A stretch of DNA of 64,000 nucleotides from Paludibacteraceae bacterium (GCA_017443145.1 JAFSPA010000010.1:2878-66877), one strand, 5' to 3'; shown: positions 13,700 through 62,977, counted from the stretch's first letter. Numbers and translations: made by a program. The notes: generated by a model from the sequence alone, not told the origin.

Positions 13700-13771
13700 G
13701 GTCCCATAGTTCAATGGATAGAATACGGGTTTCCTAAACCTTAGATCCGGGTTCGATTCCCGGTGGGACTA
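13700..13771 (+). tRNA. tRNA-Arg (anticodon CCT)
   Basis: Hand-folded cloverleaf. Acceptor GGTCCCA/TGGGACT, D-arm GTTC-AATGGATA-GAAT, anticodon loop TTCCTAA, T-arm CCGGG-TTCGATT-CCCGG. CCA is not encoded. The anticodon stem has one mismatch and one G-U pair, and the variable loop is only 4 nt. Confidence 0.8.
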
Positions 13772-13785
13772 CAGAAAATGCTCAA

Positions 13786-13812
13786 ATCCGGGTTCGATTC
13801 CCGGTCGAGTCA
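13786..13812 (+). pseudogene. Orphan tRNA 3' fragment (T-arm plus a different acceptor strand)
   Basis: The 20 nt ATCCGGGTTCGATTCCCGGT is identical to 13745-13764 of the tRNA. It is followed by CGAGTCA instead of GGGACTA, and no matching 5' half is present. Confidence 0.8.
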
Positions 13813-13973
13813 CATGATCCGAGTTCTTAGCCCTAAAGGGCACGATTATTGCTAAAGCAATTTTCGATTCCAGAGCAAATCACAATATCTGTGTTATTAA
13901 TCATTTCCAATTTAAACTGGTCCCACGTTGTTTGGAATTGGGTGTGTGACTCCTTAGTTCGTATCCTTCTGTT

Positions 13974-14070
13974 CCCGAAGGTCGCCCGAAGGTCACCCGA
14001 AGGTCGCCCGAAGGTCGACCGAAAATGAGCCGTAAGTGAGCCGTTTGTGAATCGAAGGTCAAGCGAGACC
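13974..14070. repeat. 11-bp-period tandem array (CCCGAAGGTCG x4, then decaying units)
   Basis: CCCGAAGGTCG, CCCGAAGGTCA and CCCGAAGGTCG x2, then ACCGAAAATGA / GCCGTAAGTGA / GCCGTTTGTGA / ATCGAAGGTCA. It is homologous to the array at 56516. Confidence 0.9.
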
Positions 14071-14164
14071 ATTACGTGACCATAAAATACTACAAGAATT
14101 CGCAACAAATAACAACAACCTAATTTACAAAAAATGCAGATTTTACAGCAAACTGCACTTTTTA

Positions 14165-14196
14165 TTTGCATATATGCAAAAAAAGCACTACCTTTG
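14165..14196 (+). promoter_or_regulatory. Promoter cassette with palindrome TTTGCATATATGCAAA and -7 TACCTTTG
   Basis: About 85% identical over about 68 nt to 2329-2399. The -7 box is at 14189-14196. Confidence 0.6.
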
Positions 14197-14283: not shown

Positions 14284-15519
14284 ATGAAAATAAAGAATTT
14301 ACTTCTTCTTGGTTTCTTATTGACAGGAGCAGTAATGTTTGGTGCAGAACTTATGGATACCGATGGCATCCCTTCTAATTGTTATTACCCTGCTGATTTG
14401 GAACTGTTCCCTTCGGAAATATACGGAAATCAACAGCTCAACAGCATAGTTACTATTAATCAAACGAATAAACTTGAGTTGACTTTTGACACAAAAGGAA
14501 ATGTTAAGAAAGGATTGTTGTACGTTTTAGATGAGCTCTCAAAAACATGGAGCGAATATGCGCAATTTGGGTACACTTTCGATGCTAACGGCAATCTCTC
14601 GAATACAATATGTAAAATTAAACTGCTCGACAATGATTGGATGAATTATCGTAAAGTTGAGTTTATGTACAATGCACAAGGGCAGAAAACACAGGAAATT
14701 ACCTATGATTGGAACGAAAAATGGGAATACTTAAATAAGACAACTTACGAATACGATAATACCTATAATTATCTAACGCTTGTAACCTTCTATGAATACC
14801 AAAGCGCAATGGAGGTGTGGCAGAAGTTGTGGATTGACAAATACGAACGTACTTACAACGCAGCAGGATTAGTAATCTCCTATGTATATACAACATCGTC
14901 GACATCATCTGTATGGTATAATGGCTTTATGGAACAAGTTGAATATGACGAGAAAGGACGGGAAACTTGTTATACAGAATTATACTGGGAATCTAACAAA
15001 TGGGAAAATAGATATCGAACAACCACTGTTTATGTCGATACCGACGAAGGAACGACTACTCTATCAAAAGTTGAAAAATGGGACGAAAACCAAGAGAAGT
15101 GGGTAGAGTATAAATATTATGCGTATAACTTGGACAAAAATGGCAATGAAATATATTACTCAGAGGGCGGTTTCCGAAATGGTCAATATGAAAATGGACT
15201 CTATACACGTACTAGCACGTATGACAGTAACGGACATCTGCTGAAGGTCGAAAGGGTTTATAAGTATGATACCGGTGATAGCCTGACTGAATATACCTAC
15301 GACGAGTACGGCAACCGAATATCTGAAATACATTCGGTAGATGGTATCATTCAGGAAAATACACGATGGAACTTCAGTTCGCCTTCAGGATTAATAAATA
15401 TGTTCTCGGATAAGGAAAACACCGCGACACGTAAAGTGTTGAACAATGGACAAATCCTCATCCTTCGTGGAGACAAAATCTACAACATAAACGGCGCGGT
15501 ATTGCATTCAGATCTGTAG
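14284..15519 (+). CDS. Secreted YD/RHS-like repeat protein, low-GC paralog of 2449..3615
   Basis: Signal peptide. Motifs FDTKGNV, FDANGNL, YNAQGQK, YDEKGRE, LDKNGNE, YDSNGHL, YDEYGNR. The tail is RKVLNNGQILILRGDKIYNINGAV. It is markedly AT-richer than its neighbours. Confidence 0.6.
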   Translation: MKIKNLLLLGFLLTGAVMFGAELMDTDGIPSNCYYPADLELFPSEIYGNQQLNSIVTINQTNKLELTFDTKGNVKKGLLYVLDELSKTWSEYAQFGYTFDANGNLSNTICKIKLLDNDWMNYRKVEFMYNAQGQKTQEITYDWNEKWEYLNKTTYEYDNTYNYLTLVTFYEYQSAMEVWQKLWIDKYERTYNAAGLVISYVYTTSSTSSVWYNGFMEQVEYDEKGRETCYTELYWESNKWENRYRTTTVYVDTDEGTTTLSKVEKWDENQEKWVEYKYYAYNLDKNGNEIYYSEGGFRNGQYENGLYTRTSTYDSNGHLLKVERVYKYDTGDSLTEYTYDEYGNRISEIHSVDGIIQENTRWNFSSPSGLINMFSDKENTATRKVLNNGQILILRGDKIYNINGAVLHSDL

Positions 15520-21186: not shown

Positions 21187-21218
21187 CTTATTGTTATCTT
21201 TGTCTTCAGTTATCTTAA

Positions 21219-21273
21219 TCGTCCGTGTATCGTCCGTGTATCGACCGTGTATCGACCGTGTATCGTCCGTGGG
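21219..21273. repeat. 11-bp tandem repeat (TCGTCCGTGTA)2(TCGACCGTGTA)2 TCGTCCGTGGG
   Basis: Five units, 10 nt downstream of the ABC-F stop on the minus strand and upstream of the next gene start. Confidence 0.95.
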
Positions 21274-48912: not shown

Positions 48913-48928
48913 ATCACTAAATCCGGTG

Positions 48929-48936
48929 CAAAGGTA
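48929..48936 (-). promoter_or_regulatory. -7 box TACCTTTG for rlmN
   Basis: The plus strand reads CAAAGGTA, 17 nt from the start codon. It is part of a 13-bp inverted repeat with the pspC promoter. Confidence 0.5.
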
Positions 48937-49040
48937 GTACTTTTTTCCTAAAAATCACGTATAAGGGTGCATTTTTGCAACTTCCATGTAGCAAAATCAA
49001 TAAATTTACCCCATTTTGAGTAAAAATATAGTACTCTGTA

Positions 49041-49071
49041 TTGCAAGGTTCTATATAAAACAGTACCTTTG
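49041..49071 (+). promoter_or_regulatory. Promoter for the PspC/PadR module (TTG-N20-TACCTTTG)
   Basis: TACCTTTG at 49064-49071. Confidence 0.55.
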
Positions 49072-49107
49072 CACCGTGAAATAGTAAACAACTAAAAATT
49101 ATATCGT

Positions 49108-54072: not shown

Positions 54073-55124
54073 GTGCCCGGATAGTAATGGGCCAAGATAT
54101 CGCGGTAGGAGAACCCTTCGACCGCCATCGTCGCTGCGCCTATCTGGCACAGACCTACGCCGTGACCCCAGCCGTGACCGGTTAAAATGAATTGCCCGCT
54201 GACTGCTGACCGCTCCACATCAAACCAGCTCGAGTAAAGGCAACTCTTCGACAGCCAGCGACGAATAGTCAGCTCCTTGCCTATCACTTGACGATGCCGC
54301 GTACCCACCACCTCAAGCTCGTAGATGCGGCCCGACTTGCCGCGTTGGAGAGGAATAAGGTCCTCTATCTCACCGAAGTCTATTCCCGACTTCTCGCGTA
54401 TGATATTACCTAACTCCACACCGCTGTATTGCACTTGCCAGTCATGATAATTGTTCGTCTCGAGGTCGTAGTCGTTCAGACTCTTACGCAGCTCTGTCTT
54501 ATCCTGCAAGTAGTCCGGCGCGCAGTACGGACAATCAACCGACTCCAGATACGGCACATGCTTATCTTCCCAGCACGTCTCAAACTCCTCCGTCTTGCCT
54601 CCGCAGCATTTATGAAAACGGCAGTCGCAAATCTCATCGCCGTAGGCGAGCACTTCACCTCTCGTCGCTTGCACAGCCTCCACAGCGCGCTTATTCATGC
54701 GACCAAGACCCTCGTACCGCTGACAATGGTCATCCGCGCACACATCAAATCCTACGTGACCGTTCTGCTCATATCGCGCTGATGACTGACCGCTGGTGGC
54801 TGACTGCTGGCTATTCGCTTCGATGGCGCGAAGAGCCCATGACCGGGATATCACTGCGTGAGCTTTCAGCAGTTCCATTTTCGCGTTAGCACTCATCTCC
54901 GACGATATAACGCTGCTCAGATAATCCTCTATATCAATGATATTCACCGCCGTCTCGCTGCCGTCCGCGTTATGCAGAATCTCCAATTGACCGGCAAACT
55001 CTTGGTCCTCGCGGCGGTCCCAGTGAAAACCGATACCGATACGTACGTTATGCAGAACAAACGTCTTCTCGCGTTGCTCAAACTCAATCTTCGGTGCCGT
55101 TAATATGCCTACGCGTATCTTCAT
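54054..55124 (-). CDS. SpoIID/LytB domain protein
   Basis: AQAVISRSWAL-type motif (AHAVISRSWALRA), CADDHCQRYEG, GHGWGHGVGLCQIGA. Confidence 0.8.
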   Translation of the reverse strand: MKIRVGILTAPKIEFEQREKTFVLHNVRIGIGFHWDRREDQEFAGQLEILHNADGSETAVNIIDIEDYLSSVISSEMSANAKMELLKAHAVISRSWALRAIEANSQQSATSGQSSARYEQNGHVGFDVCADDHCQRYEGLGRMNKRAVEAVQATRGEVLAYGDEICDCRFHKCCGGKTEEFETCWEDKHVPYLESVDCPYCAPDYLQDKTELRKSLNDYDLETNNYHDWQVQYSGVELGNIIREKSGIDFGEIEDLIPLQRGKSGRIYELEVVGTRHRQVIGKELTIRRWLSKSCLYSSWFDVERSAVSGQFILTGHGWGHGVGLCQIGAATMAVEGFSYRDILAHYYPGTQCKIL

Positions 55125-56017
55125 GTAGTGGGATTAACATCTTTCTGGTGATACGTAATCAGCCCTTCTATCGGCTCTTGTAGCACACCCGCAATGGGGT
55201 AGTTATGTGCCGCCATCACGTTCCGCAGCACGTCGAAGTAGTAATGCGCCACACTGCCCACAAAGCCTACACGCATCTTCGATGTCGTCGTCCAATCGCC
55301 CGTCACACCTAAGTAATCATAGTACTGCGTCAGATTGCGCGTCACAAAACTGTCAAAGTGCTCATACACCATACGATAGATGCGGTCGTCCTCTAAATGC
55401 TCGTGGCAGAATCGCGCCAAATTTGCCAGCCAACGGTTCGGGAAGGGCTGCTTATAGACGTGGTCCAATATATCGGCCTGCGTCAGATTATATTCGGTCA
55501 AAAACGCCGTTTTCAGGTCTTCGCCTAACAGGTTCTTCAGCACATCACCCACTAACCGTTTGCCTAAGGTCGCCGCACTGCCTTCGTCGCCAAGCACATA
55601 CCCCAAAGACGGTACGCTCCATTCGATCTTCTCCCCGTCGTAGAAACACGAACCGCTTCCTGTGCCGAGAATACATGCTATACCTTTCTGACGACCGAAT
55701 AGCGCACGAGCTGCACCTAACATATCGCTGGCTACCACTGCCTCCCCATGCTTGAAAATACCTTGAAGCGCATTTGCCACTAACTCCTTCTTCTCCGGCG
55801 TACAACCTGCCCCGTAGAAATAGATATGCGTCATCTCACCTGCCCATAACTGCGGACCCACTTGCGGCAAAAGCTGATCCGATATCGTGCGGTAGATATC
55901 ATCCTCGCTCTGCAGCATCGGATTGATGCCGTCTGTCTTATACTCCTGATGGTGACCGTTGGCCGTCATCAGACTCCAATGGGTCTTCGTCGACCCGCTA
56001 TCTGCTATCAGTATCAT
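55121..56017 (-). CDS. BadF/BadG/BcrA/BcrD-type ATPase (N-acetylglucosamine kinase-like)
   Basis: ILIADSGSTKTHW, ILGTGSGSC, GYVLGDEGSA. Confidence 0.75.
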   Translation of the reverse strand: MILIADSGSTKTHWSLMTANGHHQEYKTDGINPMLQSEDDIYRTISDQLLPQVGPQLWAGEMTHIYFYGAGCTPEKKELVANALQGIFKHGEAVVASDMLGAARALFGRQKGIACILGTGSGSCFYDGEKIEWSVPSLGYVLGDEGSAATLGKRLVGDVLKNLLGEDLKTAFLTEYNLTQADILDHVYKQPFPNRWLANLARFCHEHLEDDRIYRMVYEHFDSFVTRNLTQYYDYLGVTGDWTTTSKMRVGFVGSVAHYYFDVLRNVMAAHNYPIAGVLQEPIEGLITYHQKDVNPTT

Positions 56018-56036
56018 ACGTTTTCCTTTCCGCCTG

Positions 56037-56068
56037 CAAAGGTACTACAAATATTTGAAATGTACAAG
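56037..56068 (-). promoter_or_regulatory. Promoter for the kinase/SpoIID operon (TTG-N20-TACCTTTG on the minus strand)
   Basis: The plus strand reads CAAAGGTA at 56037-56044. Confidence 0.5.
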
Positions 56069-56167
56069 ATTTTTAGCAAAAAAAATAGTCTAAGCTTGCT
56101 TAAGCGTTTTTTTCTTTGCTAAAAAGATTGTCGTTTGCACAACAGTGCGAACGTACTTTCGGTGGGC

Positions 56168-56443
56168 GGAGCGTCCTTCCGCTTTCGGAAGGAGCGGCAT
56201 CCGCCGAGGATGGTTTTCACTACCTTTTCACCCGGAACGTCCTTCCGCTTTCGGAAGGAGTGGCTTCCGCCGAGGATGGTTATTATATTGCAATCCGCCG
56301 TCCGAAGTTACAACAAATATTTGTCACCCCCGGAACGTCCTTCCGCTTTCGGAAGGAGTGGCTTCCGCCGAGGATGGTTTTCACTACCTTTTCACCCGGA
56401 ACGTCCTTCCGCTTTCGGAAGGAGTGGCTTCCGCCGAGGATGG
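56168..56443 (+). repeat. Four direct copies of a 46-bp hairpin-forming unit (two dyads with identical 20-nt linkers)
   Basis: Copies at 56168-56213, 56234-56279, 56332-56377 and 56398-56443. The last three are identical. The consensus is GGAACGTCCTTCCGCTTTCGGAAGGAGTGGCTTCCGCCGAGGATGG. Confidence 0.95.
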
Positions 56444-56464
56444 TGTCCAACCGCCCCACAACAC

Positions 56465-56512
56465 CTCTTCGTGTCCCTCTCTCTTCGTGTCCCTCTCTCT
56501 CCGTGTCCCTCT
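56465..56512. repeat. 16-bp tandem repeat x3 (CTCTTCGTGTCCCTCT)
   Basis: Units at 56465-80 and 56481-96 are identical. The unit at 56497-512 has one change. Confidence 0.95.
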
Positions 56513-56515
56513 CTC

Positions 56516-56581
56516 TCCGACGGTCCCCCGACGGTCGCCCGACAGTCGCCCGACGGTCGCCCGACGGCAGAATGACAGTCG
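56516..56581. repeat. 11-bp tandem array (CCCGACGGTCG-type, 5-6 units, decaying)
   Basis: TCCGACGGTCC, CCCGACGGTCG, CCCGACAGTCG, CCCGACGGTCG, CCCGACGGCAG, AATGACAGTCG. This is a near-match to the unit at 13974. Confidence 0.95.
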
Positions 56582-56692
56582 ACCGTCCGTGAACAGCCTG
56601 TGAATCGACAACTGAGCCTGCTCTACACGATGTCCACAAAAATTCGACAAAATTGCCGAAAATCAGCTTTTTTCAACAAAGTCGCATTTTTA

Positions 56693-56724
56693 TTTGCATT
56701 TTGGCCGGTTTCGTCGTATCTTTG
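56693..56724 (+). promoter_or_regulatory. Promoter for the serine recombinase (TTTG-N20-TATCTTTG)
   Basis: TTTG at 56693-96 inside TTTTTATTTGCAT. TAtcTTTG at 56717-24, 13 nt before the ATG. Confidence 0.55.
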
Positions 56725-56737
56725 TGCAAAAAATGCT

Positions 56738-57343
56738 ATGGTTTATGGGTATATTCGTGTCTCGACCGATACGCAGACGGTGGAGAATCAGCGCTTTGAG
56801 ATTAATAAGTTCTGCGCGAAGAACGAAATCAAGGTTGACTGCTGGATTGAGGAAACAATATCCGGGACGAAGAACTACAAGACGCGGCAGTTGGGGCGGC
56901 TCTTGAAAAGGACGCAGAAAGGAGATATCATCGTCTGCTCAGAGTTGAGTCGTCTCGGGCGTAACTTGTTTATGATTATGGAGATACTCAATATCTGCAT
57001 GTCTCGTGGCTGCCGGCTTTGGACCATTAAAGATGGCTATCGTCTGGGTGACGATATCAACGCCAAAGTGCTGGCTTTTGCCTTTGGCTTGTCGGCTGAG
57101 ATAGAGCGCAATCTCATTAGTCAGCGCACCAAGGAGGCGTTGGCCCGTAAGCGCGCGGAAGGAGTGCGTCTCGGTCGTCCGGCTGGCGTAAAAACGCGAG
57201 TGGAGATGCTCAAACCGTATAAGTATCATCAACGGATTCTGCACTTGCGCGCTCAGGGATACTCGCTCTATTATATCGCGAACCGTCTGCACATGTCGCG
57301 CAACACATTGGGGAGATATATGCGCAGATTTGCGTCAAAATAA
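56738..57343 (+). CDS. Small serine recombinase (resolvase/invertase family, possibly Mpi-like)
   Basis: MVYGYIRVSTDTQTVENQ with the catalytic Ser, SELSRLGRN, ERNLISQRTKEALARKRAEGVRLGRP, and a C-terminal HTH. The ORF-track N-terminal extension was rejected. Confidence 0.85.
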   Translation: MVYGYIRVSTDTQTVENQRFEINKFCAKNEIKVDCWIEETISGTKNYKTRQLGRLLKRTQKGDIIVCSELSRLGRNLFMIMEILNICMSRGCRLWTIKDGYRLGDDINAKVLAFAFGLSAEIERNLISQRTKEALARKRAEGVRLGRPAGVKTRVEMLKPYKYHQRILHLRAQGYSLYYIANRLHMSRNTLGRYMRRFASK

Positions 57344-61081: not shown

Positions 61082-61111
61082 TCAAAAATCAATAGTCGAA
61101 AGCGTTGCGTG

Positions 61112-62020
61112 ATGGTAATACAAAAGTTCTTGGATTATATTGCCATTGAGCGGAAATACTCGAACCGTACGGTGGAGGCTTACCGCGATGACTTGAATGC
61201 CTTCTGCGCGTACCTCAATCTCGATCCGAACGCTTATGACCCGAAAATAGTGGACGAATCGGATATACGTGGCTGGCTGATTGAGTTATTGGACGAAGGT
61301 CACTCGCCACGAAGTATCAAGCGCTACCTGAGTAGCCTGAGGTCTTTTTACAAGTTTATGCTGCGAGTGGGTGCCATTGATAAGGACATCACCCGTAAGA
61401 TTATCGCTCCTAAAGAGGACAAACCCTTACCGGTCTTCTTCCGCGAATCGGAGATGCAACAAGCTACGGCCTACGAGTCGCAAGCCGACGACTTCGAGAG
61501 TAAGCGTAATTGCCTGATAATAGAGATGCTCTACCAGACAGGAATGCGTCAAGCTGAGATGCTGGGTTTGACGGATAACGACATCGACCTTACGCAAGGG
61601 CAGATTCGTATCTTCGGTAAACGCCGCAAAGAGCGTATCGTACCGATTGGCGAAGCGCTGATTAACCAGATAAAGGACTACCTTGCCGCCCGGCAGGAAC
61701 TCGGCAGCGTCTCGAACTTCTTCGTCCGCGTCAAACGTAACGGCGAAGTGGTATCGATGGATAAAGGCACCTTGTATAAGATAGTGCGCACGCGTATGCG
61801 CGAGGTGTCCACACTCAAGAAAGTGAGTCCACACGTCCTGCGGCACACGTTCGCAACTACAATGCTCAATAACGGCGCGGATATACGTACAATACAGACC
61901 TTAATGGGACACGCTTCCCTTGCAGCTACACAAGTCTATACCCACACCACTTTCGAGCAAGTGCGCAAAGCCTATAATCAGGCACACCCAAGAGCAAAAA
62001 AACAGAAAACTGAATACTGA
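61112..62020 (+). CDS. xerD: Tyrosine recombinase, XerC/XerD-like
   Basis: N-terminal SAM-like domain, ...YQTGMRQAEM (Arg), HVLRHTFAT, LMGHASLAATQVYTH (catalytic Tyr). Confidence 0.8.
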   Translation: MVIQKFLDYIAIERKYSNRTVEAYRDDLNAFCAYLNLDPNAYDPKIVDESDIRGWLIELLDEGHSPRSIKRYLSSLRSFYKFMLRVGAIDKDITRKIIAPKEDKPLPVFFRESEMQQATAYESQADDFESKRNCLIIEMLYQTGMRQAEMLGLTDNDIDLTQGQIRIFGKRRKERIVPIGEALINQIKDYLAARQELGSVSNFFVRVKRNGEVVSMDKGTLYKIVRTRMREVSTLKKVSPHVLRHTFATTMLNNGADIRTIQTLMGHASLAATQVYTHTTFEQVRKAYNQAHPRAKKQKTEY

Positions 62021-62705: not shown

Positions 62706-62764
62706 ACTAATACTTTTTAAACGTTTAAATTATTAATTTTAGGCTTTCGTACCGAAAAACCGCG

Positions 62765-62797
62765 CAAAAGTACTGCTTTTTTTTGATGTGGGCAACT
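62765..62797 (-). promoter_or_regulatory. Promoter of the small lipoprotein gene (TTG-N20-TACTTTTG on the minus strand)
   Basis: The plus strand reads CAAAAGTA at 62765-72. It is part of a perfect 22-bp inverted repeat with the rplS promoter. Confidence 0.55.
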
Positions 62798-62842
62798 ATT
62801 TTGGCATAAAAATAGAAAAAAATGCGTTTTTTTGCAATTAAA

Positions 62843-62874
62843 TTTGTGTAGTTGAAAAAAAAGCAGTACTTTTG
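62843..62874 (+). promoter_or_regulatory. Promoter of rplS (TTTG-N20-TACTTTTG)
   Basis: TTTG at 62843-46, an A8 tract, and TACTTTTG at 62867-74. This leaves a leader of about 100 nt. Confidence 0.6.
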
Positions 62875-62977
62875 CGGCCGATTTGCGTCTAGAGTCTCTG
62901 GCGATTAAGGTAGCCGTAGCAAAAAGGCGAATAGTAGTGTATACTGTAGAACGCGTAACTAATAAAGATCTATCGAA

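Follow-up and report, generated by a model that had tools for sequence, protein, structure and literature searches.

A probably selfish 46-nucleotide hairpin repeat, dispersed in rumen Paludibacteraceae and found in tandem beside an Mpi-family recombinase gene

Why do four near-identical copies of a 46-bp hairpin sequence stand in line in front of a recombinase gene? The question is raised by a 64,000-nucleotide (nt) stretch of DNA from a Paludibacteraceae bacterium (GCA_017443145.1 JAFSPA010000010.1:2878-66877; the whole stretch is hereafter called the window), in which an intergenic gap at 56018-56737 separates a divergent gene for a 298-amino-acid (aa) protein from the gene for a small serine recombinase. 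The gap measures 720 bp by the coordinates of the flanking open reading frames (ORFs), as a preliminary description of this DNA had stated. The same description listed several possible roles for the repeated unit (the 46-mer): recognition or accessory sites of the recombinase, an element resembling repetitive extragenic palindromes (REPs) or MITEs (miniature transposable elements with inverted repeats), an array of structured RNAs, and a transcriptional insulator. On the evidence assembled below, the 46-mer is probably a lineage-specific, selfish dispersed hairpin repeat, comparable to REPs, to Rickettsia palindromic elements (RPEs) or to a MITE module, which has been tandemly amplified at this locus.

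The array and the distribution of its unit

A scan of the 64 kb at up to three mismatches returns exactly four matches to the 46-mer, all on the plus strand, and none in shuffled versions of the window (0/100 shuffles). Copy 1 (56168-56213) carries three mismatches, belongs to the G4/C28/A32 variant and is predicted to fold into the hairpin; copy 2 (56234-56279) is of the A4/T28/T32 type and, like copies 3 (56332-56377) and 4 (56398-56443), has no mismatch, which bears out the initial account of four same-strand repeats with copies 2-4 identical and copy 1 bearing three substitutions. Comparison of the sequences likewise upholds the 20-nt linker TTTTCACTACCTTTTCACCC shared by copies 1 and 2 (56214-56233, plus strand) and by copies 3 and 4 (56378-56397, plus strand). 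The two dyads are offset by 164 bp and constitute a 114-nt repeat of 97% identity. The 52-nt spacer that separates them (56280-56331) had been called unique; it contains the 3' arm CCGAAGTTAC (56302-56311) of a larger element discussed below, together with a near-copy of the promoter region of the divergent gene (56305-56323 versus 56039-56057), and the promoter-like TTGTTGTAACTTCG is matched in it on the minus strand at 56303-56316. Because an independent assembly (L051/L121) has the identical arrangement, the array is not an assembly artefact. A CRISPR array was considered and rejected, as the 20-nt intervals are mutually identical, the third interval measures 52 nt, and the unit is mostly a singleton elsewhere.

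With one genome scanned per species, an exact 22-nt core of the 46-mer is present at 42 loci in 26 metagenome-assembled genomes (MAGs), at one to five loci per MAG; all of these are rumen Paludibacteraceae or 'Bacteroidales' genomes from cattle, sheep, goat, yak and deer, and many of the loci sit at contig ends. The whole 46-mer is recognisable at all 42 loci with 2-8 mismatches and is nearly always single, and a blastn-short search for diverged extra copies across the loci returned just the second copy at L024 and a partial copy at L016. A metagenome scan, in which the outer parts of the pattern were fixed and the central 20 nt left free, added 66 further copies at 65 loci. Viral contigs were scanned once with the core and once without fixing the stem, and neither scan gave a match; no phage carrier was found there.

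The copies are mostly intergenic and lie in either orientation relative to genes. The 111 nearest ORFs match 122 Pfam families, including ribosomal proteins L11 and L1, NusG, PheS, DapB, SHMT and the alpha subunit of DNA polymerase III (DnaE); among the 25 listed families of the 122, no transposase or recombinase family occurs, Resolvase included. For instance, the 46-mer lies between nusG and rplK, antisense to both, in three MAGs (L006, L020, L042), and just downstream of co-directional genes at L016, L024 and L039. With at least 107 other loci in many genomes, unrelated housekeeping neighbours and one occurrence inside a coding gene, the REP/MITE-like option of the preliminary description is the one that is sustained.

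The occurrence inside a coding gene defines the ends of the unit. At L005 and on metagenome contig L118, the gene for chorismate synthase (Pfam E=3.7e-89) contains the 46-mer in frame and in antisense orientation, and the unit there encodes PFSAEAAPSESGRTLR in a loop at which solved AroC structures have alignment gaps; a 96%-identical AroC (P0125, 321 aa versus 328 aa) is without this peptide. At the level of DNA, the flanks in the two genes are nearly identical, and what differs is the stretch between them, 47 nt (one base plus the 46-mer) in L005 and 26 unrelated nt in the other gene. The exchanged stretch leaves the reading frame intact, shows no target duplication and has borders that match the ends of the unit; the 46-mer is a discrete 46-nt module with sharp ends. 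The chorismate synthases of this lineage (L005 3709-4695; P0121-P0240) have two hypervariable loops. Proteins that share 73-98% identity vary between 301 and 376 aa in length, and tandem repeats such as (VPSDQVTKDQ)n and (GMRGLEDE)n are found in frame in the loops. Repeat insertions are tolerated by housekeeping genes of the lineage. The 46-mer also overlaps or interrupts ORFs at L068 and L064. At L064 (2620-2665) and L096 (530-575) it lies in a 236-codon stop-to-stop frame with a Fic-like C-terminal domain downstream, a frame that may represent a gene interrupted or remodelled by the unit.

A further observation concerns many of the copies whose 5' flank reads ...CCC (L058, L069, L073, L082, L100, L109, L113, L116, L024). 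These stand within local direct or tandem repeats of 7-14 bp in the pattern X, 46-mer, short AT-rich tail, X, with X specific to each locus; the X repeats may be target duplications of variable length, or they may reflect an insertion preference for microsatellite-like DNA.

Strain alleles and the neighbouring recombinase

Contigs that encode an identical recombinase protein carry four kinds of allele. The 4-copy allele has the arrangement of the window; the 2-copy allele, present in three assemblies including GCA_017448155.1, is exactly 164 bp shorter and is without the 52-nt spacer; the 3-copy allele repeats at intervals of 104 bp with a 58-nt spacer, is without the 20-nt linker and differs in its promoter cassette; and further alleles have a different 11-bp minisatellite module upstream (L128-L130). 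Copy-number change between strains, which the preliminary description had proposed to look for, is seen, with 4, 3 or 2 copies beside the same recombinase. That description had also named an outcome that would speak against its own proposal, namely a generic repeat dispersed at sites unrelated to recombinases and free of structural polymorphism: the former was found, whereas structural polymorphism between strains is clear. The 3-copy allele has chimeric units, G4/T28/T32 and A4/C28/A32, in place of the G4/C28/A32 and A4/T28/T32 units of the window, which is what exchange within the unit would produce. The multi-copy loci (the window, L024, L053 and L105) are all head-to-tail.

These data are accommodated by a simple scheme. 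The module would spread as selfish DNA, either through a trans-acting enzyme that recognises the hairpin or through recombination or gene conversion between mosaic repeats. Once two copies adjoin, unequal crossing-over or replication slippage would alter their number, and repeats of such length and identity should be adequate substrates for homologous recombination or slippage; copy-number change of this kind would yield both the four-copy array of the window and the 2- and 3-copy alleles of its sister strains. Effects on neighbouring genes, through DNA structure, the spacing of divergent promoters or RNA hairpins if the units are transcribed, would be secondary.

The most obvious competing idea starts from the recombinase itself. 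This 201-aa protein (56738-57343, plus strand) has Pfam Resolvase and helix-turn-helix domains and reaches 308.1 bits against NCBIfam NF009949, the master DNA invertase Mpi family, for which the equivalog cutoff is 272. The 46-mers might then be its recognition or accessory sites, used for deletion or duplication between direct copies or for self-regulation. The array does adjoin the recombinase in the window; moreover, the strain alleles differ by whole repeat periods, with some chimeric copies whose breakpoints fall inside the unit, and one other locus (L025, 6445-7624) has a recombinase of the Mpi family (NCBIfam, 299.9 bits) with a 46-mer about 550 bp beyond its 3' end, in an arrangement unlike that of the window. 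The letters ACGTAC/ACGTTCG in the flanking arm may resemble the core of the Bacteroides fragilis Mpi inverted repeat.

The wider distribution argues otherwise. A tblastn search with the window recombinase places a homologue near 1 of the 42 genome loci (L025) and near 0 of the 65 metagenome loci, that is, near one of the 107 other loci, and the possibility that the unit always adjoins a recombinase falls on the same count. Orthologous recombinase loci are entirely without the repeat: where the recombinase is 91% identical and the synteny is the same (SpoIID, 298-aa gene, recombinase; L043-L046), a gap of 188 bp has no 46-mer and holds an unrelated 11-bp tandem repeat in four copies (unit TAATCCTGTGT in L043), and where it is 83% identical, with the same EF-G paralogue and a pair of dNK genes coming after it (L047-L050), the gap is 78 bp and again has no 46-mer. 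In the 91%-identical relative the entire spacer is a different one, so that no clean empty site can be defined at this locus. Among the 83%-identical cases is L048 from MAG250, a genome with three 46-mers at other places (L030, L032, L040) but none beside this gene. The substrates known for Mpi are inverted repeats around invertible promoters (PMC4747536), whereas all copies here are direct, with no promoter between them; inverted repeats within 600 bp, sought across the window, are divergent-promoter pairs and palindromes alone, and none flanks the array. Finally, 114-nt repeats at 97% identity should suffice for RecA-dependent or slippage events. That the 46-mers serve as sites of the adjacent enzyme, as first suggested, is thus very unlikely and is the least likely of the rival explanations; the Mpi-family recombinase is a bystander, and a false lead is removed, since the array is not part of an Mpi-type invertase system.

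Two observations on the surroundings of this gene may be added. A XerC/D-like tyrosine recombinase (61109-62020; Phage_integrase and SAM-like N-terminal domains) is encoded four genes downstream, and the block formed by the Mpi-family recombinase, the EF-G paralogue, the two dNK genes and the tyrosine recombinase is kept in synteny in relatives (L047-L051).

Hairpin, host element and predicted promoters

Each unit is predicted to form an 8-bp hairpin, TCCTTCCG-CTTT-CGGAAGGA, which gains C5-G27 and a pair 4-28 across a bulged G6; the hairpin originally proposed is accordingly recovered by fold prediction. All 35 distinct 46-mer copies pair in the 8-bp stem, in a set in which the search pattern fixes every stem pair other than 4-28, and this sole varying pair is GC in 23 copies, AU in nine, GU in two and A.C in one, a chimeric copy. 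In the unbiased metagenome set, in which the central 20 nt were left free, all 16 stem bases are kept in 63 of the 66 copies, and two stem variants are single transitions that give G.U on the plus strand. The loop occurs there in six variant types, among them AAAA, the reverse complement of TTTT; the pair suggests a hairpin-mediated template switch, which would invert the hairpin tip in just this way. At four metagenome loci with the AAAA loop (L068, L072, L087, L092), the unit overlaps the last 17 or so codons of a 461-aa ORF without a Pfam match.

The second, 6-bp hairpin of the preliminary description, which was held to exclude the first as in an attenuator, fared less well. It is formable in copies 2-4 but is not the predicted minimum-energy fold, nor is it conserved in the family: the A23-U32 pair of this helix (19-24/31-36) is present in 17 of the 35 distinct copies and broken in the other 18, including copy 1 of the window, and no covariation is detected in the helix across them. 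An outer helix, GGCGGAG/CTCCGCC, similarly shows no covariation and is broken in many copies. What is conserved is the hairpin and its exact sequence, not a switch. The extent of this conservation is illustrated by a comparison with UBA3742, in which 44 of 46 nt are identical to the window next to a neighbouring protein of only 62% identity; neutral expectation would be far lower, and the value fits either recent spread or sequence-specific recognition.

A larger host element surrounds the 46-mer at about 24 loci; on the strand of the 46-mer, it consists of a small hairpin, GCGAACGTAnnTTCGG, nGGGC, the 46-mer, a variable stretch, and GGGCGTG-CCGAAnnTAC-TACAAA. In the window, the small hairpin reads GCAC-AACA-GTGC (56137-56148, plus strand), and equivalents with other sequences are visible by eye, unscored, at other loci. 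It is followed by the 5' arm GCGAACGTACTTTCGG (56147-56162, plus strand), which has a single site in the window; the supposed truncated fifth copy at 56149-56163 is in fact this separate conserved module, which stands beside single 46-mers at about 24 other loci. Host elements without a 46-mer also exist, single and tandem (L013, L018, L040). At about 19 of the 24 composite loci, a divergent gene lies on the 5' side at a distance of 150-370 bp; in the sense of this gene, the order is TTTGTAG-TAnnTTCGG, the reverse complement of the 46-mer, CCGAAnnTAC-GTTCGC, the small hairpin, an A-run/palindrome/T-run, a promoter and ATG. The A-run/palindrome/T-run of the window is an inverted repeat with 22-nt arms (56064-56131) and belongs to a dispersed promoter cassette of about 130 nt, made up of the arm, the small hairpin, this inverted repeat and the promoter. 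This cassette (56018-56162) is 80-92% identical to cassettes in other MAGs (L003, L004, L008, L015, L017, L028, L032 and L036, of which the one in L032 precedes the gene for DNA polymerase III alpha). As the genes that these cassettes precede are unrelated, the cassette is a candidate for a promoter unit that is reusable or mobile.

The divergent gene itself (55121-56017, minus strand) was identified as an ORF with the mosaic repeat region upstream, and its 298-aa product matches nothing in Pfam or NCBIfam, so the label 'sugar-kinase-like' given to it earlier is not confirmed. Upstream of a 62%-identical homologue (L011/L104), too, there is a composite element, which contains one 46-mer. The Bacteroidetes promoter consensus is quoted as TTTG, about 20 nt, TAnnTTTG (PMC4747536). 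By this consensus, the proximal promoter of the 298-aa gene is predicted to be TTGTAGTACCTTTG, with the -7 box TACCTTTG of the TAnnTTTG type (56037-56050, minus strand); the motif has three matches in the window against 0.03 expected, and the same architecture precedes genes at other composite loci. The outer arm of the host element is a near-copy of this -7 region (TTGTTGTAACTTCG versus TTGTAGTACCTTTG). On the other side, the predicted recombinase promoter consists of TTTG, 20 nt and TATCTTTG (56693-56724, plus strand), ends 13 nt before the ATG and has a layout, TTTG-N20-TAnnTTTG, that recurs at 14160-14196. Judged from these consensus matches, the array sits between two divergent predicted promoters, and because it lies upstream of both, it is outside either leader. 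The attenuator-like switch is contradicted on this ground as well as by the alternative helix, broken in 18 of 35 members.

The conservation of the hairpin might instead mean that the unit is a functional structured RNA, either a multicopy small RNA or a cis hairpin, with its transcription driven by the promoter-like TAnnTTCG boxes that the host element's arms carry. A strongly conserved hairpin with a loop free to vary would suit such an RNA, as would the covariation of pair 4-28 and the five of five one-sided helix changes that are G.U-compatible on the plus strand; moreover, both arms resemble the -7 box of the lineage, and the A-run/hairpin/T-run follows in the gene sense. The G.U bias is not significant, however (about 5/6 events), and the stem is invariant in sequence rather than covarying. 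The folding z-score of single units is weak on the plus strand (-0.63), and Rfam searches of both strands gave nothing at gathering thresholds and noise alone at E<=10, in agreement with the earlier statement that no known RNA family is matched. Copies occur in both orientations relative to transcription, once antisense within a coding sequence; the alternative hairpin that a switch would need is broken in half of the family, as noted; the array lies upstream of both predicted promoters in the window; and the boxes read TTCG instead of TTTG, most of them without a properly spaced -33 element. A functional RNA is thus considered rather unlikely. In the same context, the host element was examined as a gene for a small RNA that would have a promoter and a terminator of its own; this reading is kept as a rival but not adopted, with a -33 box properly spaced at about 5 of 24 loci and -7-like boxes of the TTCG form.

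Alternatively, the array and its host element may act at the DNA level within the promoter architecture, as an insulator or spacer, a decoy promoter palindrome or a platform for nucleoid proteins, and be kept by selection. The regularity of the composite loci speaks for this, the element at about 19 of 24 preceding a divergent gene by 150-370 bp with constant order and orientation to the promoter cassette, as do the arms that mimic the -7 region of promoters and the retention of 44 of 46 nt beside a protein of 62% amino-acid identity. Set against it are close relatives without the repeat at the same genes, a copy number that varies freely among strains with an identical recombinase, and 46-mers in places where such a role makes no sense, namely downstream of genes, between nusG and rplK, and within aroC. 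A selected role in promoter architecture therefore appears quite unlikely, and the reading of the 46-mer as a dispersed selfish repeat is preferred to it.

The remainder of the gap is no less repetitive, and the 720 bp are a patchwork of at least four repeat families. A 16-bp tandem repeat, CTCTTCGTGTCCCTCT x3.2 (56465-56516, plus strand), differs between strain alleles. A minisatellite module with a conserved leader and tail (56497-56612, plus strand) contains the 11-bp CCGACGGTCGC x4.6 at 56517-56567 and is homologous to 13958-14066; the latter has the 11-bp CCCGAAGGTCG x4.5 and shares the leader TYCGTRTCCYTCT and the tail ..GTGAATCGA with it. A promoter follows each of the two window modules at a distance of about 100-130 bp, strain alleles exchange one version for the other upstream of the recombinase (L128-L130), and another 11-bp repeat (x4.9) is found at 21218-21271. 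Elsewhere in the window, long inverted repeats at 48924-49076 and 62763-62876, with arms of 20 nt and 50 nt, are outward-facing, near-identical divergent promoters (..GTACCTTTGCACCG, ..GCAGTACTTTTGCG). The only tRNA gene that ARAGORN finds in the window is tRNA-Arg(CCT) at 13700-13772. Its 3' part is duplicated 41 nt later over 25 nt at 92% identity (13781-13805), which looks like the att-site remnant of an integrated element, and a gene for an RHS-repeat protein comes next (14284-15519).

Weighing the reading and comparison with known systems

Several findings weigh against a selfish dispersed repeat. The 46 nt are about 90-96% identical across MAGs in which the neighbouring protein stands at 62%, and such conservation could equally reflect a sequence-specific cellular function, with a protein or an RNA as ligand; compensatory stem changes are absent except at pair 4-28. 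At aroC, 47 nt stand where a relative has 26 nt, which makes this a replacement and not a clean insertion; no mobilising enzyme was found, and there is neither a target-site duplication nor a consistent target beyond a 5' C. One to five exact cores per MAG looks low in comparison with classical REPs, and the dimers are head-to-tail, which is rare for REPs. The fragmentation of the MAGs makes both the census and the orientation statistics incomplete.

A more far-reaching version, which must be called doubtful, is that the 46-mer is the substrate of an undescribed Bacteroidales mobilisation or recognition system, or that module, host palindrome and cassette together form a portable regulatory unit. 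If so, recognition by a sequence-specific enzyme or binding protein would extend over almost the full 46 nt, the stem being invariant and the loop free to change; the enzyme or protein would place the module precisely, without target duplication, in promoter-like palindromes and coding loops across several genera of rumen Paludibacteraceae; and the portable unit would rewire gene expression in the lineage. REP-, RPE- and MITE-like hairpin repeats have been known for decades, and the wider interest of the present one hinges on a dedicated mobilising enzyme or cellular ligand. At a more modest level, a small-repeat family not previously described is added for a rumen lineage that is abundant though uncultured. 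With many copies at contig ends, the family interrupts MAG assemblies; housekeeping enzymes can gain peptides from it, and it moves in company with promoter cassettes that are reusable; and the strain-level length polymorphism at the array could serve as a typing marker.

Among known systems, the CGTC-tagged REPs (Di Nocera et al. 2013, PMC3733652) are a close structural parallel, with stems of 8-9 bp and loops of 4-5 nt, and with exactly an 8-bp stem and a 4-nt loop in the CGTC-1 family. They can be nested in palindromes within mosaic intergenic regions, are sometimes intragenic, and in the CGTC class have no associated transposase (PMC3733652). The 46-mer is likewise a short GC-rich stem-loop (8-bp stem, 4-nt loop) that is dispersed, lies for the most part between genes and occasionally within one, can be nested in a longer palindrome and is mixed with other repeat modules. 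The REP superfamily is further marked by an unpaired GTAG or CGTC tag, A-T in the first two stem pairs and a 3-nt tail of consensus CCA; head-to-head dimers predominate, head-to-tail ones are negligible, and tens to thousands of copies occur per genome (PMC3733652). In the 46-mer, CGTC does occur at positions 5-8, but T7 and C8 constitute the first two stem pairs, and there is no GTAG; these first pairs are T-A and C-G, and the stem is followed by GCG/GTG, not CCA. Moreover, the unit measures 46 nt instead of 20-40, is conserved across many species rather than species-specific, and is represented by one to five exact cores per fragmented MAG and by a single locus in the 64-kb window. Because the tag is paired, the CCA tail is absent and the dimers are head-to-tail, membership among the CGTC REPs fails, and the 46-mer is filed as a separate family.

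As for MITEs, the 46-mer lacks their terminal inverted repeats (GGAGCG versus CCATCC), whereas the host element has 10-nt arms, GTAnnTTCGG and CCGAAnnTAC, with internal mismatches; the target-site duplication of MITEs is absent at aroC, and the direct repeats that flank the unit at some loci differ in length and belong to local tandem repeats. In Porphyromonas gingivalis, the BrickBuilt MITE occurs about 19 times in a genome, at intergenic sites without exception, near housekeeping genes and 49-591 nt away from coding sequences, with promoter elements inside, a leader and tail with small inverted repeats, and an internal tandem copy number that varies between strains (PMC4596501). Compared by description rather than by sequence, both are modular elements of Bacteroidales with an internal unit of variable tandem copy number; the BrickBuilt repeat, however, is 23 nt long, without spacers and without a strong hairpin, while the present unit is a 46-nt hairpin with spacers of 20-58 nt.

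RPEs offer a parallel for the aroC case, in that a palindromic repeat lies in frame in a housekeeping protein, chorismate synthase, and adds a short peptide in a surface loop. These elements, described by Ogata et al. in 2000, are reportedly inserted in frame in conserved proteins, at lengths of about 100-150 bp, in obligate intracellular bacteria. They are thus longer and of different provenance, and the 46-mer has one confirmed in-frame case; RPE-4 and RPE-6 have themselves been classed as CGTC REPs (PMC3733652). Sites of the Mpi/Hin type are inverted repeats that flank an invertible promoter (PMC4747536), from which the direct 46-mers differ, having no conserved association with a recombinase. 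Lastly, reused or putative mobile promoters have been described (PMC3575422), and the likeness to them concerns the host cassette of about 130 nt with its predicted promoter, not the 46-mer itself.

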